A stretch of 64,000 nucleotides of DNA, taken from an uncultured Bacilli bacterium. GTDB taxonomy: Bacteria > Bacillota_I > Bacilli_A > RF39 > UBA660. Under the pieces are notes generated by a model that saw nothing but the letters and a program-made list of their open reading frames with translations, had not been told where the DNA came from and did no database searches. Positions 1,937-63,929 of the stretch are shown here, one piece after another. Every line of letters begins with the position of its first letter. Position 1 is the stretch's first letter. The position numbers were made by a program, and so were the translations under genes. Where the stretch lies: positions 13,314 to 77,313 of the forward strand of contig CANQXW010000001.1 in NCBI GenBank assembly GCA_947627925.1, written 5' to 3'.

Positions 1937-2107
1937 TTATCTAATTGTGACTTGAACACACCTTCTTTTTGTAAAAAGTTTGGCTAGGGAGTCGCCAATG
2001 GAAGTACCTATTTCATAGATTTTATCCATGATTTTAATTATTCCTTCTAAAACGGGTCCTGATAAAGACCCACCTTTTATTTCTAATAATTCTTCATTAC
2101 TTAACAT
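1937..2107 (-). CDS. class IIb bacteriocin precursor, peptide 2 (double-glycine leader)
   Basis: Hand translation of the minus strand gives MLSNEELLEIKGG|SLSGPVLEGIIKIMDKIYEIGTSIGDSLAKLFTKRRCVQVTIR, 56 aa. The leader is a textbook LSxxELxxIxGG. The GGAGG RBS (rc of 2112-2116) overlaps the stop of peptide 1. This ORF is not in the ORF track because it is under 60 aa. Confidence 0.7.
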   Translation of the reverse strand: MLSNEELLEIKGGSLSGPVLEGIIKIMDKIYEIGTSIGDSLAKLFTKRRCVQVTIR

Positions 2108-2115
2108 AGGACCTC

Positions 2116-2268
2116 CTACTTACAAGCCTTAGAGTTCACGGTGCCATTTAAAACTCCAGCGAAAAACACTACAATTCCGGAAACAATTCCCGTAATTAAA
2201 GTAACCATACTGGCACTCATCGCTCCTCCTTGTAACTTTAACATTTCTTCATTATTTAATTTAATCAT
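2116..2268 (-). CDS. class IIb bacteriocin precursor, peptide 1 (double-glycine leader)
   Basis: Minus strand: MIKLNNEEMLKLQGG|AMSASMVTLITGIVSGIVVFFAGVLNGTVNSKACK, 50 aa. It has a GG leader, a GxxxG-type helix-helix motif (GIVSG) and a cationic C-terminus. The RBS is GAGGAGG (rc of 2271-2279). Confidence 0.7.
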   Translation of the reverse strand: MIKLNNEEMLKLQGGAMSASMVTLITGIVSGIVVFFAGVLNGTVNSKACK

Positions 2269-2278
2269 TATTACCTCC

Positions 2279-8199: not shown

Positions 8200-8389
8200 A
8201 ACTTTATTTCACTATCTTAAGTTATTACGAAAGAATTTATTATATTAATTATGTTATTTAAAATAACTTATCTAGCAGAAAGTTTAGAAATTAAATTAAA
8301 AGTAAAATTATGGAAAGAATATAAAGAAAATATTAAATTAATAATTAATATATAATTTTAAAAAAATTGATAATTAATAATACTTTGCA

Positions 8390-8416
8390 ATTGGCCAATC
8401 ACTGATTGACCAATTT
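8390..8416. repeat. palindrome P2 (AATTGGCCAATCA-C-TGATTGACCAATT)
   Basis: Same family as P1. The flanking frame reads FAIGQSLIDQFT*. Confidence 0.8.
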
Positions 8417-8558
8417 ACTTAACCTTATATTAGAGAACTTTTATAGTAAAAATTAATATTTGTAATAAAAAAATTATTTTTTTAATATGTTCGACAAAAA
8501 GTGACAAAATAAACATTTCTTGTTTGATATAATACAACCTTATTAAGGAGAAATTATT

Positions 8559-9494
8559 ATGCATGAACAAGATTATTTTAATGAAATAAGAAGTATTATT
8601 GAAAATGTGGAAGTAAATAAAAAAGTTAGAGAGTATAAAAATAATTATGATGATTTAATAGCTAAATGGAATATTGGGAAATTACTAGTAGAAGCCCAAG
8701 GTGGAGAAAAAAGAGCCAAATATGGTAATAACTTAATAAAAAGATGGTCAGAAATATTTGTGAATGAATATGGAAAACAATACAGTGTTACAAATTTAAA
8801 ATACATGAGACAATTTTATTCAGCATTCTCAATTGGTCAACCAGTGGTTGGCCAATTAACATGGTCTCATATCATCAAATTATTACCCATTAAAAATGAA
8901 AATGAAAGAAATTATTATATTAACTAAGTTATTTTAAATAATTTGTCTAAAAGAGAATTAATTAATGAAATTAAAAGTAATGCATTTAATAGACTGTCCT
9001 ATGCTGATAAAGAAAATATTAAATTAATTAATAATGAAGAAGATAAATATAATTTAACTCTATCAGATATGATTAAAGATCCTATTATTATTAAAACGGA
9101 TAAAAATATAAATAACTTAAATGAAAAAGCTATTCATAAATTACTTATTGAAATGCTAGAGCAAAGATTTCTAGAGTTAGGTGTGGGATTCACTCTTGTT
9201 GGTCATGAATATAAAATAATTAAAGATAATATAACTTATAAAATTGATTTATTATTCTTTAATGTTAAATTAAATTGTTATATACCTATAGAAATTAAAA
9301 ATCGAAATATAACACCAGAAGATATTGGACAAATAGAATTTTATACACATTTAATAGATGATAATATTAAAGAAATATATAACAATCCAAGTATTGGTCT
9401 TATATTAGTTAAAAAGAAAAATAAATATGTTTTAGAATATGCTACAGGAAAAAACAATATTTTTGTTTCTAGTTATTTATTAGAAAAAATTTAA
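8559..9494 (+). pseudogene. yhcG: YhcG/DUF1016 PD-(D/E)XK nuclease gene, copy A, split by an in-frame TAA at 8925-8927
   Basis: ORFs 8559..8927 and 8943..9494 together carry NLKYMRQFY, QLTWSH, SKRELINEI, FTLVGHEY..IDLLFF..IEIK and PSIGLILVKK, the hallmarks of DUF1016_N plus YhcG_C PDDEXK. Copy B has CAA (Gln) where copy A has the TAA. An extended -10 (TGaTATAAT) is at ~8523. Confidence 0.75.
8831..8857. repeat. palindrome P3, inside the yhcG-A coding sequence (AATTGGTCAACCA-G-TGGTTGGCCAATT)
   Basis: It encodes I-G-Q-P-V-V-G-Q-L, immediately before the conserved TWSH motif. Confidence 0.85.
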
Positions 9495-9624
9495 AAAATA
9501 ATATATTATTGGTTTTATACCTCATTATTTGAATTAAAACTATATTAAAAATGTCAGAAATGTTTGTTTAGAACAATATTGTCAAAATAACGGTTTTATA
9601 TACAATAATTTCTTATGAGTTTCC

Positions 9625-9651
9625 AATTGTCCAATCAGTGATTGGACAATT
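9625..9651. repeat. palindrome P4 (AATTGTCCAATCA-G-TGATTGGACAATT, perfect 13-bp arms)
   Basis: The flanking frame reads YEFPIVQSVIGQLSLSY*. Confidence 0.8.
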
Positions 9652-9728
9652 AAGTTTGTCATATATAATATAATTATTAATACTCTAAAGAAATGGTTAA
9701 AATATGAGCAATTTTATTCAACATTTTC

Positions 9729-9755
9729 AATTGGTCACGCAGTGCGTGGCCAATT
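9729..9755. repeat. palindrome P5 (AATTGGTCACGCA-G-TGCGTGGCCAATT), in a ~65-codon YhcG N-domain pseudogene fragment
   Basis: The frame reads YEQFYSTFSIGHAVRGQFNLTWIHIKSLLIEQKKLGNFYNVSKRW..., homologous to copy A RQFYSAFSIGQPVVGQLTWSHIIKLL. Confidence 0.8.
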
Positions 9756-9831
9756 CAATTTAACATGGATTCATATTAAAAGTTTATTAATAGAACAAAA
9801 GAAATTAGGCAATTTTTACAACGTTTCAAAA

Positions 9832-9852
9832 AGGTGGCGCAATGGGCCACCT
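9832..9852 (-). terminator. GC-rich hairpin G1 (AGGTGGC-gcaatgg-GCCACCT) downstream of the DUF4143 ATPase gene
   Basis: A T-run follows on the minus strand (…GCCACCTTTTTG). It shares GGTGGCGCA…GCCACC with G2. Confidence 0.55.
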
Positions 9853-9915
9853 ATTTATTTGGACTTATATTAAATTTTCTTACTAGCAAAAGATGAAAAC
9901 GAATAAATTATATTT

Positions 9916-11232
9916 TTAACATAAAGTATTAATTAGAAATGCAGCATATAAAGGAACTGATTTAATTCTTGTTTCAGAACTATAACCAAAATCTTTTAAA
10001 CTAATTCTAATTTTATATTTAGGATGATATAAATCATCATAAACTTTTAAACTTTTAGCCTGAGTATGTTCCTCAGCCTTAACTTCAATAGGAATTATTC
10101 CATCATTCTTAGTTGAAATTAAAAAATCAACTTCAGAATCCCTTAATCCTTTCCAATATAATAAATCTAATCCATTAGCTTTCAGTTGATTAGCTACATA
10201 ATTTTCCGTAATAATGCTTTTATATATTTTCATATCATCAAGAAGAATAGTTTTAATATCATTGTTTACTAACCTATTAAAAATTCCTACATCTGAATAA
10301 TAAACTTTGAATTTTTCATTATCTACAAATCCCAATAATGGCTTTTCTGGTTTTTTAACACATTTACATAATTGAACAATATTGCTTTCAATTAACCATT
10401 CTAATGGCAATAAGTATTCTCTAGATTTAGCATCTGTTTCAATTACGGAATATTGAAACTTTTTAGAGGCATTTTGTAATTGTGATGGTAGCGAATTATA
10501 TATATTTTTTATTTTAAGGGTTTCGTATATATTTTTCACATGATTATTCATATCATTCATATAATCTTCTATTATATTATTAAGTATAGATAAATCATAA
10601 TTATAATTATCATCTTTGCAACTAACCAATGCTTTGACACTTTCTGGCATTCCTCCAGATAACATATATCTTCTATAATACTCTATCGCTTTTGTATGAG
10701 TTACTCCCATCGATTCATTATTTTTAAAACAAGATTTTATTTTATTTAATAATAGGTCTTGATCAAACGCCATTAAAAATTCTTCAAAATCCATTGGATA
10801 CATATATAGTCTAGTAACTTTTCCAACCGGAAAAGGTTTATCTAGTCTAGCAAGTTTTACTCCAAGTAAAGAACCAGCGCAAATAATTCTAACATTGCTA
10901 TGCTTCTCATTAAAAAATTTTAGCTCTGAAATCAACTCTTCGCTAACTTGTATTTCATCAATAAATAAAACACTATCTTCTTTATCAAAATCAAAATCTA
11001 ATAATATTTTTAAATCATTATACTTTTTTTCTGATGAAACATCAGAAGCATATAATTTAACAACTTCTTTATCATTTAATAAATTTATTTTTTTATAATT
11101 TTTAAATTCATTTTTACAAAATTCATCAATTATAAACGTTTTTCCACATTGTCTAACTCCCAAAACAAGTAATGGTTTAAAATCCGTTTCGTTTTTCCAA
11201 TTAATTAAATCATTATATATCTTTCTTTTCAT
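9916..11232 (-). CDS. AAA+ ATPase with DUF4143 domain (COG1373-type ATP-binding protein)
   Basis: 438 aa. The Walker A LVLGVRQCGKTF and overall architecture match the DUF4143 ATPase family. Confidence 0.8.
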   Translation of the reverse strand: MKRKIYNDLINWKNETDFKPLLVLGVRQCGKTFIIDEFCKNEFKNYKKINLLNDKEVVKLYASDVSSEKKYNDLKILLDFDFDKEDSVLFIDEIQVSEELISELKFFNEKHSNVRIICAGSLLGVKLARLDKPFPVGKVTRLYMYPMDFEEFLMAFDQDLLLNKIKSCFKNNESMGVTHTKAIEYYRRYMLSGGMPESVKALVSCKDDNYNYDLSILNNIIEDYMNDMNNHVKNIYETLKIKNIYNSLPSQLQNASKKFQYSVIETDAKSREYLLPLEWLIESNIVQLCKCVKKPEKPLLGFVDNEKFKVYYSDVGIFNRLVNNDIKTILLDDMKIYKSIITENYVANQLKANGLDLLYWKGLRDSEVDFLISTKNDGIIPIEVKAEEHTQAKSLKVYDDLYHPKYKIRISLKDFGYSSETRIKSVPLYAAFLINTLC

Positions 11233-11444
11233 CAGTTTTCACCTTTGCTTTAATTAACCTAATTATAGCATACTTACACCTTTTTGCACCCACTTTTCAT
11301 GAAAATTTACACTTTTTTGTAATCACATTTGAATTTAATTAATTGAAAATCAATTAAATTCTTGTTAAAATTTCATTTTTATGCATTCTTATAGTATCAT
11401 TAACAAAATTTAAAATATATGCATAAATTTTATCAATTATTTCC

Positions 11445-11471
11445 AATTTGGCCGGCATTGTCGGCCAAATT
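11445..11471. repeat. palindrome P6 (AATTTGGCCGG-CATTG-TCGGCCAAATT)
   Basis: The frame reads SNLAGIVGQIT*. Confidence 0.75.
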
Positions 11472-11511
11472 ACATAATCTCACTTTCTTAAACTATTATC
11501 AATAATGATGA

Positions 11512-12225
11512 GAGCAAAAGAAATTAGACAATCCTACTTTCCAAATTGGGCCCACACTGTGTGCCCAATTGACATATTCTCATTTTAGAGAATTATTACC
11601 CATTAAAAATGAAAATGAAAGAAATTATTATATTAACCAAGTTATTTTAAATAATTTATCAGTTAGAGAATTAATTAATGAAATTAAAAGTAATGCATTT
11701 AATAGATTATCTTATGCTGATAAAGAAAATATTAAATTAATAACTAATGAAGAAGATAAATACAATTTAACACTTTCTGATATGATTAAAGATCCCATTA
11801 TTATTAAAACGGATAAAGATATAAATAATTTAAATGAAAAGGCTATTCATAAGTTATTAATTGAAATGCTAGAGCAAAGATTTCTAGAGTTATGTTTAGG
11901 ATTTGCTCTAGTTGGTCATGAATACCCTTTAAAAATAAATAATAAAACTTATCGTACTGATTTATTATTTTTTAACTATGAAATAAATGCTTTTGTCGTT
12001 GTCGAAGTTAAAAATGAAGAATATAAACCATCACAAATTGGTCAAATAAAATTTTATATGGATTATATAAATAAGAATATTAAAAAAGAACATCATGCTA
12101 AAACAGAAGGAATATTAATAGTTAAAGAAAAAGATAAATATGTTATGAAGTATATAAATGATAAAGGAATTTATATAACATCATTTAAATTATTAAATAA
12201 TATGAAAGATAAAATTTTAAAATAA
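11512..12225 (+). pseudogene. yhcG: YhcG/DUF1016 PD-(D/E)XK nuclease gene, copy B, N-terminally truncated (no ATG; frame opens at 11512)
   Basis: LLPIKNENERNYYINQVILNNLSVRELINEIKSNAFNRLSY…LVGHEY is near-identical to copy A (~90% nt, ~95% aa over ~110 aa). The PDDEXK core that follows is only ~45% identical. The upstream N-domain is missing. Confidence 0.6.
11544..11570. repeat. palindrome P7 (AATTGGGCCCACAC-TGTGTGCCCAATT), in frame with yhcG copy B
   Basis: It encodes FQIGPTLCAQLTYSH, continuous with ORF 11569..12225. Confidence 0.8.
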
Positions 12226-17059: not shown

Positions 17060-17330
17060 TTTAAAAAAATTCATAAACAAAAGGGCGAAAATTATTCACG
17101 GTACCACCTTTATTTATGAATTTAATTCATCTCATCATTTTAACGCATCACTGCGAAACCAAAGTACTTTTAATTCCTCGGGTTAGCTCCTAAGGGATAT
17201 AAATTAAATACTTTTATTAGTTTCCACCAACCACTAACTCTCTTTAAAAAGCTCTTTAATTTACGTGTCTTATTCATCGCCTTTAAATTTACACTTTAAA
17301 TTATATGCAAAATCTCAATGTTAGTCAACC
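17060..17330 (-). promoter_or_regulatory. T-box riboswitch leader of ileS
   Basis: The rc of 17093-17110 is AAAGGTGGTACCGTG, the T-box consensus AAnnGGGTGGnACCGCG. An AGAGAG element sits further 5'. The extent is approximate. Confidence 0.5.
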
Positions 17331-22755: not shown

Positions 22756-23607
22756 TTATATAGTAACCTTTTCTTCGCTTAAATTATTGGTTATGTATTC
22801 TAACGAATCTAATAAACTTTCAAAAGATATATTACTAGAATATGGAGCAGTAATTTGATAACTTTTCCATAATTTTTTAAGCTGTTCACTTGATTTCATA
22901 TTATTTAGTTGCTCTTTAACATTTTCTATATTTAATTCAGTTTTTTTATATCTGAAAGTATTTTTTATTGCTAAAACAAGATTTTTAAAATTTATTTTTT
23001 CTTTATTATCATTTATCAAAACATAAATATCATAAAAATCTTTCATTCTAGTATTATATATATCTCTTTCTATAATAGTTTGATATTTTTCAGCAATAAA
23101 AGTTTCCAATGTATAAGCAAAAATTGGTATTTTCTTATCTTCAAAATGGGAATTATACATATAGAGAATTTCTCTTGGAGTTATTCTATCCCCTGTTGTA
23201 AGTTCTATAGCAAGATAAACTTTTAAATTATCCATTGTTGCTAAAATGTTTATCTTAAATCCACCATACTCATTGTCTTCCCTTATATCTTTAATATTTT
23301 CAATTTTAAATTTTATGCCATCATCAACTTTTGTATTTAATATTTCTGTTATTATTTCTATTACATTATCTTTATTAAGTGGCAAACTCTTTAATGTTGC
23401 GTCCATATCCTTTGTTGTTCTTTCATCATCACCGATAATAGAAGAAAGTAATAATCCGCCTTTTAAAATAATATTATGTTTATATTTGCTTTTTGAAAGT
23501 CTTTCTAAAATATGTTCAAAAAAATACATTTGATATAATTGGGCTGATACATTACTATTTCCTTTTGCCTTCTTTGAAATAATACTTTTTAATTTGTCTT
23601 TATCCAC
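22756..23607 (-). CDS. abiEii: nucleotidyltransferase toxin AbiEii/AbiGii family (DUF1814)
   Basis: 283 aa with the KGG motif (NIILKGGLLL), DxD (TTKDMDATL) and typical length. It overlaps the AbiEi stop by 1 nt. Confidence 0.8.
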   Translation of the reverse strand: MDKDKLKSIISKKAKGNSNVSAQLYQMYFFEHILERLSKSKYKHNIILKGGLLLSSIIGDDERTTKDMDATLKSLPLNKDNVIEIITEILNTKVDDGIKFKIENIKDIREDNEYGGFKINILATMDNLKVYLAIELTTGDRITPREILYMYNSHFEDKKIPIFAYTLETFIAEKYQTIIERDIYNTRMKDFYDIYVLINDNKEKINFKNLVLAIKNTFRYKKTELNIENVKEQLNNMKSSEQLKKLWKSYQITAPYSSNISFESLLDSLEYITNNLSEEKVTI

Positions 23608-24236
23608 TATAACAATACCTCCATATATTCACTTACTTTCTTTTCAATTTTCATAATTTTGGCATACTTGGTAAGTTTGCTTAAATTTTTATTTTTACTT
23701 CTAGCGTACTCTTTTAGGGCTTTCGAAAATATTTCACCATCAATTTTATTTCTATTTTTAATAATATCACAAATTGTTCTCTCAATATCATATACTTTAA
23801 TTTTCATACCAAAAGGAGATGTCATTTCTATTGCACCTAAATCTAAAATATTTCTATTTACAAAGCTAATAATTACATTTTTATCTTTTTGTAAAACTCC
23901 ACTATAATCATTAGGCAAAGTGATATTGTATAAAAGAGGTGTACGATCTGATAAATTATGTAAGTATAAAGCAGTAGCCAATGAAAATCTTACATTTTTA
24001 CTTTTAGAGGCTATTTTATAATATTCATCTTCTATATAATTAGGAAGTCCATAATAGCCTTTTGAAATTCTTATTAATGTTCCTTTCTTTACCATGTTTG
24101 TCAAAAATTTTTTATCAATGCCATTATTTACAACTTCTTTGGTTGTAATACAACCATTATTTTTTTCAACAATTTTTAAAATTTTATCATAATTCATAAT
24201 TTTACACCGTTCTCTTTCTAACTGAAATTCTATCAT
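23607..24236 (-). CDS. abiEi: AbiEi antitoxin-like transcriptional regulator (type IV TA / abortive infection); true start probably ATG at 24197
   Basis: N-terminal winged-helix …ILKIVEKNNGCITTKEVVNNGIDKKFLTNMVKKGTLIRISKGYYGL. Confidence 0.75.
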   Translation of the reverse strand: MIEFQLERERCKIMNYDKILKIVEKNNGCITTKEVVNNGIDKKFLTNMVKKGTLIRISKGYYGLPNYIEDEYYKIASKSKNVRFSLATALYLHNLSDRTPLLYNITLPNDYSGVLQKDKNVIISFVNRNILDLGAIEMTSPFGMKIKVYDIERTICDIIKNRNKIDGEIFSKALKEYARSKNKNLSKLTKYAKIMKIEKKVSEYMEVLL

Positions 24237-25590: not shown

Positions 25591-25721
25591 AGTAATAATA
25601 TAAAAAGAAAAGAACCTAATTCATCATTTATACTTTAGGTTCATTCAAAAATTTTTCTACAACATCCAACGCAAGAATATTTGAATGTTCCTTTTTATTG
25701 TATTCAAGTTTCCTTGACATA
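25591..25721 (-). ncRNA. promoter-sRNA/leader-terminator module, copy 1 (5' of rlmD)
   Basis: -35 TTGAAT (rc of 25739-25744), a 17-bp spacer and -10 TATAAT (rc of 25716-25721). A conserved ~70-nt core GUCAAGGAAACUUGAAUACAAUAAAAAGGAACAUUCAAAUAUUC follows. The terminator is GAACCUAA…UUAGGUUC plus a U-run. Confidence 0.45.
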
Positions 25722-25749
25722 TTCATTATACTATAAAAGGTTTTCTAAT

Positions 25750-27711
25750 TCAAGATGTCTTTTTTTGTAACAGTTCTCTCTTACTAACCTCTTCTATTTC
25801 ATAAGAATAATCATTATCAGTAACTCTAACAAATTCTCCTAGTTCCATAGCTAAATATTCTTTTAAAAATTCATAATCATCAGGACTACTTAGCATCATT
25901 TTGCTAAAGGCACTTTGAATTTCTTGCCAAACACTTATTACTCTTTCATCAGTAGGATACATTTCTAAGAAATATTGTATTTTATCATACATATCTTTAT
26001 ATTTTATTAAAGTATGAACATCTCCTTTTAAATTTTCTTTAAAAGCAGTTTTTAAAAATCTTTGAATTTTATCACTAGAGAAATCAATACGTCTTAATTT
26101 AACAACACAATCAATAATCTCCTCTTCGGTTAAATAACGAATTGGAAACATTTGATCAAAATTATAACACTCATTTAATTCCATCCAAATCCGATTATAC
26201 TCTTTTTTACTAATAAGAGATTTTAACTCCATATTTTGTCTTTCTCTTATAATTGGTTCAGCTTTAGGGGCTTTTGGTTTTCTTAAATTTCTTTTGGTTA
26301 AAGTTGACTTTATTGATTGTAAATATGGTTTAGCAAGTCCTAAATTTTTTAAAGCCACAATTATAGCATCAATATCTTCTCTAGTTAATCTTTCTTTCTT
26401 AAAATAATGTTTATCAATAGTCATTAAATTGTCTTTAAAATTTGAAAAATTAATATCTTTTACATTTGAATTAATAGCTACATATTGATGGGGAGGTGTT
26501 AACATATCATAAGCATAGCGATTTAACATACTTTCGAAAAATAAACCGTCCTCAAAGACCGAATCAAATTGAATTTTTGGCTTATTATCAACAGAATCTG
26601 TGATAGCTTCGGCTTCTGGATCAAAATTCCATATTTCTATATCTCTTTTTAAGCACCAAAAAATAAAGTCAGTTATTTCAACTTTGGTAAAAGAAGATGC
26701 ACCCAATACCAAGTTTAATCCTTCAAAATTAATAATTAAAGTTTGGCTAAAATAGGCTCTCTCAGGATATCTTAAATAATTATAAATGGAAGCACCAGCA
26801 ATAATTTTTGATAAATTATCAAAATCATTTTTGGACATTGTTTCGCTAAAAGTATCTGTATAAGCAACTAATCTTTCTTTATTGGTTAAACGTCTACCTT
26901 GATTAACTTTTTTTAATAGTTGTTCATTGTCAATTAATCTGGAAATATTTATATAGTCAACTATTTTTCTTTCAAAAATTTGCGAAACTTTTTTTAAATT
27001 ATCATATAATTTGGCCAATAGACTTTCTTCGTAAGTTGGTTCTTGTTTTTTTCTATCTTCTTGTTCTTCTCCTAAATATATGGCAAAACATTCTACCATC
27101 TCTGAACTCAAACCTAAAGATTTTAAACTTTCTAAAAAAACATCTATATCTTCTTTTTCTAAGTAAGGATATTTATCAAAAAAGTGTTTTTTAATTTCAC
27201 TAAATATATCAATAGGATTGCCCGAACTTTGTGAAATTATCGTAATGGCTTTATCTAATTCTAATTGTACTTTTTGTTCTTCGGGGCTTAAAAGACTACT
27301 ATCCTTCATTAAAAAATCTGCTGATTTTCCATCTTGAATCAATTCTTCAATCTTAGCTTTTACTTCTTCTTCAAAAGGGTAATTAAGAATTTTTTCCCGA
27401 TCAATAAGAACATTATCTTTATCGAATCCAAAATTATAAACATCTATTCTTAACAAAAATAGAATAATTTGCATTTTTTCTTTTAAAGTTAAATTTCCAA
27501 AATCTAAATGAGAAACTATATTTTTAAAGTTAATTAAAATTTTATCGTCATCTAAAACATCACTTTTGCCATTTTTTAACATTCTTTGAACTCTTTCAAT
27601 AATTTCTTTATATCTAGGATAATTCTTTTTTCCTTCTTCTAAAATTAAATAATATTTTTCTATCGCTTGATCCATTCCTTCAAACATAAAATATTCCCCC
27701 TTAAAAAGCAA
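25750..27711 (-). CDS. hypothetical protein
   Basis: 653-aa ORF. No family recognised. Confidence 0.4.
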   Translation of the reverse strand: MLFKGEYFMFEGMDQAIEKYYLILEEGKKNYPRYKEIIERVQRMLKNGKSDVLDDDKILINFKNIVSHLDFGNLTLKEKMQIILFLLRIDVYNFGFDKDNVLIDREKILNYPFEEEVKAKIEELIQDGKSADFLMKDSSLLSPEEQKVQLELDKAITIISQSSGNPIDIFSEIKKHFFDKYPYLEKEDIDVFLESLKSLGLSSEMVECFAIYLGEEQEDRKKQEPTYEESLLAKLYDNLKKVSQIFERKIVDYINISRLIDNEQLLKKVNQGRRLTNKERLVAYTDTFSETMSKNDFDNLSKIIAGASIYNYLRYPERAYFSQTLIINFEGLNLVLGASSFTKVEITDFIFWCLKRDIEIWNFDPEAEAITDSVDNKPKIQFDSVFEDGLFFESMLNRYAYDMLTPPHQYVAINSNVKDINFSNFKDNLMTIDKHYFKKERLTREDIDAIIVALKNLGLAKPYLQSIKSTLTKRNLRKPKAPKAEPIIRERQNMELKSLISKKEYNRIWMELNECYNFDQMFPIRYLTEEEIIDCVVKLRRIDFSSDKIQRFLKTAFKENLKGDVHTLIKYKDMYDKIQYFLEMYPTDERVISVWQEIQSAFSKMMLSSPDDYEFLKEYLAMELGEFVRVTDNDYSYEIEEVSKRELLQKKTS

Positions 27712-27933
27712 AAATTATTATAGTTAATTTTTCTCTTCAAGTCAATAAATTCTTTGATCTTTTATGTATTCTGTAACTTTTATGTATTAAAAAATTAAAA
27801 AGTTTCTTAATGTCCGCATATTTTTCTTGACTTCAAAAACATTAGTTTGCTATACTTAATTTAGGAATATTCAAATAGTTGGGCGTTGCCTTCATCTTAG
27901 AAGTGAATAACTTTTAAGTTTGGAGGTGATATT

Positions 27934-28014
27934 GTGAATAAAAAAGACTTTATAATTTTATTTCTATTTATAATTATTTATTCACTAATTAGAATAATTT
28001 TTCAGCTTGTGTAA
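27934..28014 (+). CDS. small hydrophobic peptide (type I toxin-like), GTG start
   Basis: RBS GGAGGTGA at 27923-27930, then GTG…: (M)NKKDFIILFLFIIIYSLIRIIFQLV*, 26 aa. The stop lies in the terminator region of the convergent sRNA copy 2. Confidence 0.3.
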   Translation: MNKKDFIILFLFIIIYSLIRIIFQLV

Positions 28015-28137
28015 AAAAACAACGCCTAACTCAGCAATGAATTAGGCACACTCATCATAGATTAGGCAACACTCAACACGACAATATTTGAATGTTCCTT
28101 TTTATTGTATTCAAGTTTCCTTGACATATTCATTATA
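28011..28137 (-). ncRNA. promoter-sRNA-terminator module, copy 2
   Basis: -35 TTGAAT (rc of 28155-28160), 17-bp spacer, -10 TATAAT (rc of 28132-28137). The core matches copy 1. The terminator is GCCUAAUUCAUUGCUGAGUUAGGC plus a U-run. Confidence 0.45.
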
Positions 28138-28238
28138 CTATAAAAATTTCCTTAATTCAAGATGATCGCAAATTGCTATCAAACATGTATTAATTGGTTA
28201 ATTTTGCCAATAATAATTTTAAGTAAGGATGATATTGT

Positions 28239-43740: not shown

Positions 43741-44062
43741 AAAAATTGCTAACCCTAAAACTCCCGTGCCGACGGGATTAGGTTTAAATGATCAAGATTA
43801 TATGACTACGCTTTTAAGTACTTTAAAAGCTATGGTTAAAGACATGACTGTAGCTTTAACCGAAGCCTCTAATAGCGAACTTTATAAAAAATTTAAAGAT
43901 ATGTTTGAAAACTTAATAAAATTACAAAGAGCTTCTTATGAATTAATGTTTAAATTAGGATGGTATACTTTAGAAGAAGCTAAAGATACTAAAGTTAATA
44001 CTTTAGGTAGTGATTTACAAACACAACTAGATAATTTAAATAGTGAAAAGGGAAAATCGTGA
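43721..44062 (+). CDS. cotF: spore coat protein F (Coat_F domain)
   Basis: …NPKTPVPTGLGLNDQDYMTTLLS…ASYELMFKLGWYTLEEA matches the CotF pattern. Confidence 0.7.
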   Translation: MGKMENKKIANPKTPVPTGLGLNDQDYMTTLLSTLKAMVKDMTVALTEASNSELYKKFKDMFENLIKLQRASYELMFKLGWYTLEEAKDTKVNTLGSDLQTQLDNLNSEKGKS

Positions 44063-44094
44063 ATTAAAAAAGCATTTTATAGTATAATGAATAT

Positions 44095-44205
44095 GTCAAG
44101 GAAACTTGAATACAATAAAAAAGGAACATTCAAATATTCTCGTGTTGAGTGGTGCCTAATCTAAATTGAGTTAGCCTAATTCATTGCGGAGTTAGGCGTT
44201 TTTTC
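44095..44205 (+). ncRNA. promoter-sRNA-terminator module, copy 3
   Basis: -10 TATAAT at 44083-44088, the core as in copies 1 and 2, and the terminator GCCUAAUUCAUUGCGGAGUUAGGC (44174-44197) plus a U-run. Confidence 0.45.
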
Positions 44206-44290
44206 TTTTGATAGTAGCCTTTTAAAATACTAAATTGTCAATTTAGAAAACACACTTGCATATTGACAACCAATATGCGTGTGAAATATT

Positions 44291-63756: not shown

Positions 63757-63832
<76 letters not shown>

Positions 63833-63840
63833 ATAAAAGA

Positions 63841-63929
63841 TGGTGCCCAAGGCCGGACTTGAACCGGCACGGGTGATTAAGCCCGCAGGATTTTAAGTCC
63901 TGTGCGTCTACCTATTCCGCCACTTGGGC
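63841..63929 (-). tRNA. tRNA-Leu (TAA)
   Basis: The rc is GCCCAAGTGGCGGAATAGGTAGACGCACAGGACTTAAAATCCTGCGGGCTTAATCACCCGTGCCGGTTCAAGTCCGGCCTTGGGCACCA. It has a long variable arm. Confidence 0.85.

Follow-up and report, generated by a model that had tools for sequence, protein, structure and literature searches.

The untranslatable primary transcript, in which an anti-Shine-Dalgarno (anti-SD) element occludes the Shine-Dalgarno (SD) sequence and which is sometimes also closed by a 5'-3' long-distance interaction, has been called a "major hallmark" of type I toxin-antitoxin (TA) loci by Masachis et al. (PMC6733600). T1TAdb finds loci by such determinants and describes the antisense RNA of Gram-positive families as located on the 3' side, in partial overlap with the toxin mRNA (PMC8594479). 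Described type I toxins usually carry a polar or charged C-terminal tail (PMC2887945, PMC6563280), and the loci tend to occur in multiple copies and tandem duplications (PMC2887945). Here we describe a locus in a 64,000-nt stretch of DNA (the window) from an uncultured Bacilli bacterium (contig CANQXW010000001.1), for which an earlier reading of the sequence (the original prediction) had proposed a type I TA module consisting of a 26-aa hydrophobic peptide encoded convergently with the second of three copies of a small RNA (sRNA). This interpretation is supported by comparative evidence from alignments and predicted folds, namely a conserved open reading frame (ORF), coding-type substitutions, SD occlusion, a 5'-3' interaction, and a 3' antisense RNA. 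The locus is probably (with a probability of about 0.78) an intact copy of a type I TA family that had not been recorded before. The closest systems by architecture are bsrG/SR4 with txpA/RatA, par/fst, and hok or AapA; on the features compared, the locus appears to belong to none of these. It would represent a new family, with a new layout, of a well-known kind of system, for which we infer toxicity, transcript ends, and the decay mechanism.

The putative toxin gene lies on the plus strand. Its predicted promoter (TTGACT-18-TATACT with a TG (TGn) extension; 27827–27856, 10 of 12 matches) is kept in seven of the eight modules that form the window's own group (group A, described below), with 84% identity in the alignment; the original prediction had named none. 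The ribosome-binding site (RBS) of the original prediction, GGAGGTGA, is present but sits one base away from where it had been placed (27922–27929, not 27923–27930), and the GTG start codon (27934–27936) does lie 7 nt past the GGAGG core when read from the sequence. The ORF (27934–28014, plus strand), recognized from its sequence and its conservation among homologues, encodes the 26-aa peptide MNKKDFIILFLFIIIYSLIRIIFQLV and ends with the stop codon TAA at 28012–28014; the translation is the same as that given earlier, (M)NKKDFIILFLFIIIYSLIRIIFQLV. As had been noted, a charged N-terminus (MNKKD) precedes a single predicted membrane-spanning helix. Residues 6–26 are hydrophobic (top 17-aa Kyte-Doolittle mean 2.89), and the peptide has the general properties of a type I toxin, being hydrophobic, shorter than 60–70 aa, and predicted to form a transmembrane helix. 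Gene callers left the ORF uncalled in the ENA metagenome assemblies of the organism. The module adjoins gerA-type germination genes.

The ORF ends in a structure that would be used differently on the two strands. Its stop codon falls in an A-run (28013–28019) adjoining a hairpin formed by GCCTAA (28024–28029) and TTAGGC (28042–28047), as the original prediction had it, and the extended stem of this stem-loop spans 28022–28049. On the minus strand the stem-loop and its T-run (U-run 28019–28013) make up the sole terminator-like site between 27600 and 28300, where 0.1 are expected in shuffles, and they would terminate the convergent sRNA, in agreement with the earlier claim. On the plus strand the same element would be a free hairpin in the toxin 3' untranslated region (UTR); it contains compensatory changes and stays a hairpin in mRNA folds. 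Since the plus strand has no U-run there, the hairpin is not a bidirectional terminator, so the proposal that the two transcripts share a terminator and are complementary at their 3' ends stands for the complementarity, which extends over about 94 nt and beyond the shared hairpin, but not for the terminator.

The antitoxin sRNA of about 113 nt (28125→28013, minus strand) is delimited by its promoter, terminator, fold, and covariation. It comprises P1 (28124–28111), an A-rich linker, P2 (28098–28065), a second linker, and the P3 terminator, and its promoter, read from the sequence, is TTGAAT-17-TATAAT (28160–28132, minus strand). The fold is more stable than expected (z = -3.6), and 12 of its 20 pairs show compensatory changes among 25 copies. 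A covariance model built from these 25 copies and run on the window and the fetched loci scores the window's copy 2 (28010–28128, minus strand; also apparent from the sequence) at 123 bits. No Rfam family matched the sRNA of any subfamily even at E ≤ 10, and there was no leader or riboswitch match.

The toxin transcript most likely ends at a second hairpin (28065–28098) followed by a U-run (28099–28103), both on the plus strand; this element (28065–28103) is the complement of sRNA P2. In the window's subfamily the hairpin is worth -4.4 kcal/mol and is followed by UUUUUAUUG, and the U-run is the complement of the sRNA's invariant A-run. A structural comparison across subfamilies covered 22 modules with predicted mRNAs of 220–244 nt, and a hairpin with 5–7 U was found at the toxin 3' end in all 22. 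With the toxin end at this hairpin, the overlap amounts to about 94 nt rather than to the stop-codon hairpin alone, and the complementarity of sRNA and toxin mRNA begins at the stop codon and continues up to the mRNA's 3' end (94 bp, -162 kcal/mol). At the sequence level, the sRNA is accordingly a cis-antisense RNA with its own promoter, its own terminator, and complementarity to the toxin mRNA, as in other type I systems. The 15-nt linker between the two hairpins (28050–28064, both strands) is single-stranded in consensus folds and is the only hypervariable transcribed segment, with 53% mean pairwise identity compared to 80–100% in the other RNA elements. It is a candidate cognate-recognition determinant among paralogues, or else an unconstrained spacer.

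The predicted toxin mRNA of about 244 nt (27863–28106, plus strand), with its start set 7 nt past the -10 box and its 3' end at the U-run, is strongly structured. Its minimum free energy is -70.3 kcal/mol (z = -8.2 relative to shuffles), and the consensus fold of seven homologues agrees with that of the window mRNA. The 5' arm of a long-distance helix, AGGAAUAUUCAAAUAGUUGGGCGUUGCC (27863–27891, plus strand), repeats the arms of sRNA P2 in the same sense with the loop omitted, and its 3' arm coincides with the candidate toxin terminator. The predicted pairing with the last 50 nt takes up 28 of the first 30 nt in the window, where it involves both arms of the 3' hairpin region, and 21–29 of them in each of the 22 modules. 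The arms co-vary between subfamilies: mean duplex energies are -32 kcal/mol with 3' arms of the same subfamily, -22 kcal/mol with those of other subfamilies, and -9.5 kcal/mol for shuffled 5' ends, and 20 of 22 5' ends find their best 3' partner in their own subfamily. Three other explanations of the 5' region were considered and rejected. It is not a fourth, degenerate inverted copy of the sRNA but rather the 5' helix arm for the mRNA's own 3' end, with which it co-varies. Pairing of the 5' UTR segment AGUUGGGCGUUG with the post-stop hairpin occurs only in an mRNA truncated at 28055, the longer helix winning at full length. The two arms (27863–27891 and 28065–28098) also appear not to be MITE-like terminal repeats, as conservation runs about 40 nt and 60 nt further, into both promoters.

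A second, local structure encloses the RBS (27922–27929) in an anti-SD hairpin (GCCUUC...GGAGGUG; 27888–27929, plus strand; -18 kcal/mol). The probability that the SD is unpaired is 0.01 in the window and 0.00–0.45 over the 22 modules, and an anti-SD is present in every subfamily, each with its own sequence (CCUUC, CCUCC, CUUCUU, and others). Thus, in silico, the primary toxin transcript would be untranslatable in all 22 modules, as is characteristic of type I loci.

To place the locus among its relatives, a 20-nt core of the sRNA was scanned over one genome per species, giving 20 true loci and one unrelated chance match (L005). The loci belong only to metagenome-assembled genomes (MAGs) labelled as uncultured Bacilli, Erysipelotrichaceae, or Tenericutes, from rabbit, goat, and other gut samples. 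In the window and these loci together, the covariance model identified 34 confident sRNA copies in about eight MAG species, with some 15 of them in one rabbit MAG. Tandem arrays occur at a spacing of about 420 nt (for example L010 at 6726/7144/7567), so that the copy number and the arrays in L010 and L021 follow the multi-copy, tandem tendency of type I TA loci. Both arrays hold three modules (L010 6726–7680 and L021 2943–7312), and the one in L010 mixes subfamilies in the order B, A, B. The module was not found in viral contigs, phage records, or plasmid records, ten forms of the peptide had no exact match in a collection of 15 billion proteins, and literature searches returned no relevant type I system for Erysipelotrichaceae or Mollicutes.

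The original prediction had named in advance a lack of conservation of the GTG ORF at other copies as grounds for abandoning it. Instead, about 27 of the 33 scorable copies, those with usable flanks, face a hydrophobic mini-ORF, homologous or analogous to that of the window, that is 23–30 aa long, is preceded by a strong RBS, and ends at the sRNA terminator. The eight members of group A conform to MNKKD[IF][IL]IFSL.IIIYSL..II[FL][HQ]L., and their 330-nt modules are 84% identical. A second peptide subfamily has the form M.KKD[FL]LI... followed by an L/I/F-rich stretch (27 aa), a third consists of MPKRIFWIKVLRYITIILLLLTLLVIEIKK and its relatives (30 aa), and a fourth follows MRNRE..LYTIIILLIIVILIILIKIVPT. 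(30 aa). Within the group A ORF, the variable columns are distributed over codon positions 1, 2, and 3 as 10, 2, and 14 (P = 0.0025), and in the pooled subfamilies as 43, 25, and 57 (P = 7e-4), with position 2 depleted. Position 2 is mostly T in the mini-ORFs. Of the three frames, one alone stays open in all eight group A sequences; the other two are stop-rich. In these alignments, the substitution pattern is as selection for a hydrophobic peptide predicts.

These data bear on the possibility that the ORF is incidental and the conserved element is a structured non-coding RNA pair or a bidirectionally transcribed element, with the frame staying open because AT-rich sequence rarely has stops in that frame. 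The window has about 27% G+C, which makes hydrophobic mini-ORFs cheap; AT-rich DNA easily encodes peptides rich in I, L, F, K, and N, and the UTRs are conserved as well as the ORF is. However, the strong RBS at the right spacing and the intact frame persist in about 27 modules despite differences in nucleotide and peptide sequence between subfamilies, the alternative frames are full of stops, and changes are depleted at codon position 2. An RBS followed by a strongly hydrophobic ORF of 20–45 aa is found three times in the window compared to 0.03 on average in random sequence of matching composition, a roughly 100-fold excess, and we therefore set chance origin of the combination aside. Moreover, the co-varying anti-SDs mask the SD specifically, which implies that translation must matter. 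Taken together, an incidental ORF is scarcely credible.

In the type I TA model that we favor, the plus strand would give an mRNA of about 244 nt for a 26-aa membrane peptide and the minus strand an antisense sRNA of about 113 nt. The primary toxin transcript would be translationally inert, because its GGAGG is held in the local anti-SD hairpin and its first 28 or so nucleotides are closed on the 3' terminal region. The sRNA may nucleate on the exposed 3' UTR, either at the hypervariable linker or at the loop of the stop-codon hairpin, and then zip up to a long duplex; SR4 makes its first contact with bsrG mRNA through its terminator loop (PMC3834814). By analogy to txpA/RatA and bsrG/SR4, this duplex would lead to decay of the toxin mRNA after RNase III-type cleavage. 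Were the sRNA depleted and the mRNA activated by some processing step, of which a 5' processing event is one possibility, the peptide would enter the membrane and growth would stop.

Since the sRNA target takes in the long helix's 3' arm, the mRNA's 5' end is a same-sense copy of the sRNA P2 arms, and the mRNA 5' end and the sRNA would consequently compete for one site. We tentatively suggest, while considering it doubtful as a whole, that this amounts to a three-way RNA switch, in which an antitoxin covering the 3' UTR and a toxin 5' end mimicking P2 compete for a single target, the linker sets specificity among the roughly 15 paralogues, and the P1/A-rich domain recruits a protein such as an RNase or a CsrA-like factor. 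If this hypothesis is correct, the layout would be one not described before, combining a Gram-positive-style antitoxin with a hok/AapA-style lock.

Several observations weigh against the type I TA reading. The ORF as a whole is no better conserved than the UTRs, and a crude count of synonymous to non-synonymous codon differences is about 1:1. The conservation partly reflects shared ancestry, as the homologues come from a narrow MAG clade with about 84% module identity. In the group A peptide the charge is N-terminal and the membrane helix reaches the C-terminus, where described type I toxins usually have a charged or polar tail. The terminator hairpin is weak (-4.4 kcal/mol in the window), so both the toxin 3' end and the long-distance helix in its full extent are deduced rather than directly apparent. 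Finally, the SD hairpin (-18 kcal/mol) persists in models of the full-length, sRNA-bound, and 3'-trimmed mRNA, which are qualitative only, and this leaves translation of the peptide puzzling.

Comparison with described systems places the locus near several of them. The original prediction had likened the peptide to Fst, TxpA, and BsrG, a resemblance that holds for the architecture but does not extend to homology, as there is no Pfam or NCBIfam match and the Fst signatures are absent. Eight representative peptides gave no match in either library at E ≤ 10 (such libraries may not model every toxin family). With bsrG/SR4 and txpA/RatA the locus shares convergent genes, an sRNA whose complementarity to the toxin mRNA is in the 3' part and spans about 100 nt, and a double-stranded SD (PMC3834814); first contact via the terminator loop is plausible here, and RNase III-dependent decay would be expected (PMC3834814). 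In the TxpA and BsrG families, however, the overlap includes the ORF (PMC8594479), whereas the 3' overlap of about 94 nt here takes in the stop codon only. The toxins of those systems are 38–59 aa long compared to 26 aa here, where the charge is N-terminal, and their sRNAs are about 180–220 nt compared to 113 nt. The absence of sequence similarity, the long 5'-3' helix, and a location outside prophages further set the locus apart from bsrG/SR4 and txpA/RatA.

The par locus of Enterococcus faecalis (fst/RNA II) likewise has convergent promoters, an sRNA terminator where the toxin gene ends, and a toxin with a charged N-terminus (Lys/Asp), and its toxin RNA intramolecularly sequesters both its extreme 5' end (5'-UH) and its SD, with the ORF outside the overlap (PMC7472228, PMC8594479). 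By the published Fst signature criteria (PXXXG(C), Trp, and a charged tail; PMC7472228), the peptides do not belong to this family: the Fst/Ldr motif P/D/S/T-XXX-G(C) is found in none of 26 peptides, which also lack a conserved Trp followed by a charged C-terminal tail, and group A has no Trp and only 0–1 charged residues in the last 7 aa. A second complementarity over the SD and start codon of the par DRa/DRb type was not found, the sRNA 5' domain pairing with the toxin 5' region at -9.5 kcal/mol and shuffled sequences at -11.1 kcal/mol. In par the bidirectional terminator is shared, whereas here the U-run is on the minus strand only and the candidate toxin terminator is separate (28065–28103). 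The overlap of about 94 nt and the lack of an Rfam or Pfam match are further differences from par/Fst.

The 5'-3' lock of the full-length mRNA, the local SD-sequestering hairpins, and the multi-copy chromosomal loci are reminiscent of hok/Sok (plasmid R1) and aapA/IsoA (Helicobacter pylori) (PMC6733600). In these systems, however, the antisense RNA acts on the 5' part of the mRNA, whereas here it covers the 3' UTR, and its target includes the 3' arm of the helix. The long-distance interaction of AapA itself carries the anti-SD, while here a local upstream anti-SD masks the SD. Trimming of the 3' end frees the SD in hok/AapA but not here, where the SD stays paired in silico after removal of 45 nt. 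The hosts of hok/Sok and aapA/IsoA are Gram-negative, there is no homology, and no leader ORF is present in our locus. Modules of Clostridioides difficile (CD2517.1/RCd8 and others) resemble it in having a long convergent overlap, in being unannotated before their discovery, in lacking homology to other families, and in occurring in multiple copies in gut Firmicutes (PMC6563280). Their toxins have 34–59 aa, an N-terminal transmembrane helix, and a Lys-rich C-terminus, compared to 25–30 aa and an N-terminal charge here, and they often lie in prophages or beside CRISPR arrays, whereas we see no phage association.

The window does hold three copies of the sRNA, of which only copy 2 faces a peptide. 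Copy 1 (25600–25721, or 25600–25753 with its promoter; minus strand) scores 104 bits with the covariance model and copy 3 (44092–44211, or 44059–44211 with its promoter GTGAAT-18-TATAAT; plus strand) 120 bits; both are orphans. All three share the promoter and almost identical first 75 or so nucleotides, and in the 3' part, corresponding to the overlap region, copies 2 and 3 have 89% identity, while the terminator of copy 1 differs. Past its terminator, copy 1 retains about 50 nt of a toxin 3' coding remnant, followed by unrelated sequence upstream of a rumA-like gene, and its homology to the intact modules of L013 and L017 is lost at the same point, about 50 nt beyond the terminator. Copy 3 sits between a cotF-like gene and a 153-aa ORF, a site at which L017 and L023 carry intact modules; homology to these stops exactly at the sRNA terminator and gives way to a different segment with a 95-aa ORF. 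The original prediction had counted the peptide-less copies as a weakness of the TA interpretation. They prove not to be one: since the toxin is kept at syntenic loci (L017 and L023), its loss, by truncation at copy 1 and by replacement at copy 3, has left both as orphan antitoxins. Orphan sRNAs are present in other genomes as well. Copy 3 could pair with the copy 2 toxin mRNA over 78 nt (-117 kcal/mol), so by this model orphan copies may still act on that mRNA in trans. The 645–653-aa ORF between copies 1 and 2 (25750–27711, minus strand) matches no Pfam family, and the fetched loci contain no homologue of it.

At the cotF-like site, L017 (5115–5540) and L023 (6425–6850) carry different module subtypes, distinguished by the terminator and the C-terminal half of the toxin. 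As judged from the aligned sequences, this difference suggests that modules at a fixed site have been replaced or have recombined.

The distribution of copies also bears on whether the peptide is a toxin at all. It could be a conserved small membrane protein with a non-toxic physiological role, for example in a membrane complex or in sporulation or germination, with a cis-antisense RNA adjusting its level. The coding signature and the RNA architecture show that a small membrane peptide is regulated but not that it is toxic; the window copy lies by gerA-type germination genes and copy 3 by the cotF-like gene, and Fozo et al. (PMC2887945) found some candidate toxins to be harmless when overexpressed. 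However, about 15 copies per genome, divergent subfamilies, tandem arrays, repeated loss of the toxin half with retention of the antisense gene, translation predicted to be blocked at several levels, and different module subtypes at the same chromosomal site are not what this explanation leads one to expect. Because such copy number, toxin loss, translational block, and site swapping are typical of selfish TA modules and odd for a housekeeping peptide, a non-toxic role is unlikely.

The sRNA itself has one feature that antisense pairing does not account for. Its 5' domain, UAUGUCAAGGAAACUUGAAUACAAUAAAAAAGG (P1 hairpin and A-rich linker; 28092–28128, minus strand), is near-invariant across all subfamilies, including the copies found only with the covariance model, and this near-invariant P1/A-rich domain lies outside the overlap with the toxin mRNA. 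Speculatively, it could bind a protein, for instance an RNase or a factor resembling CsrA. The domain has two AGGAA motifs, separated by about 22 nt, and the toxin mRNA begins with AGGAA as well. The invariance hints at a role beyond antisense pairing, and copy 1 lies directly upstream of a gene on its own strand, so the sRNA might be mainly a trans-acting regulator, or a cis leader or attenuator for downstream same-strand genes (the rumA-like gene, the 645-aa ORF), with the peptide a side issue. This is very improbable, as the same-strand downstream context varies between copies and is lacking for copy 3, no Rfam leader or riboswitch matches, and the consistent partner of the sRNA is the convergent ORF. 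An AGGAG motif past the terminator in some subfamilies had also suggested a cis leader or attenuator; this was rejected, as the motif is the reverse complement of Leu codons of the toxin.

If the type I TA assignment is correct, it adds a family for the poorly studied uncultured gut Bacilli and Erysipelotrichaceae, with about 15 copies in one assembly, that has been invisible to gene callers, Rfam, Pfam, and NCBIfam. The putative toxins would be among the shortest seen (25–27 aa), with the charge N-terminal, and as they fall outside the search rule "transmembrane helix plus polar C-terminal tail," earlier searches may undercount type I systems. The module would join two layouts so far described apart, the 3'-overlapping antisense RNA and the 5'-3' mRNA lock. 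Its subfamilies, at least five in number, together with the orphan antitoxins, tandem arrays, and hypervariable linker, provide natural variants for studies of cognate specificity and toxin loss, and annotators of MAGs should expect such loci in intergenic regions.

We also identified other features in the window. Of the remaining two matches to an RBS followed by a hydrophobic mini-ORF, one, at about 2220 on the minus strand, was considered as a second candidate mini-toxin and rejected, being instead a bacteriocin precursor with a double-glycine leader. It belongs to a region (about 1960–2270, minus strand) in which adjacent small ORFs carry double-glycine leaders, MIKLNNEEMLKLQGG|AMSASMVTLITGIVSGIVVFFAGVLNGTVNSKACK and MLSNEELLEIKGG|SLSGPVLEGIIKIMDKIYEIGTSIGDSLAKLF..., and which resembles a two-peptide class II bacteriocin locus. 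AbiEi_4 (23607–24236) and AbiEii (22756–23607) genes on the minus strand, immediately downstream of the rumA-like methyltransferase gene, constitute an abortive-infection/type IV TA pair; their Pfam labels come from contig L001, which is identical. At 17078–17286 on the minus strand there is a T-box leader (Rfam RF00230, 121.9 bits), and tRNA-Phe(GAA) and tRNA-Leu(TAA) lie side by side at 63757–63929, also on the minus strand. A repeat cluster at 8229–11838 contains a pair of 300-nt repeats with 88% identity (8826–9125 and 11539–11838), as well as 77-nt and 48-nt units present three times each and a palindromic CAATTGGTCAACCAGTGGTTGGCCAATTG-like unit present five times.

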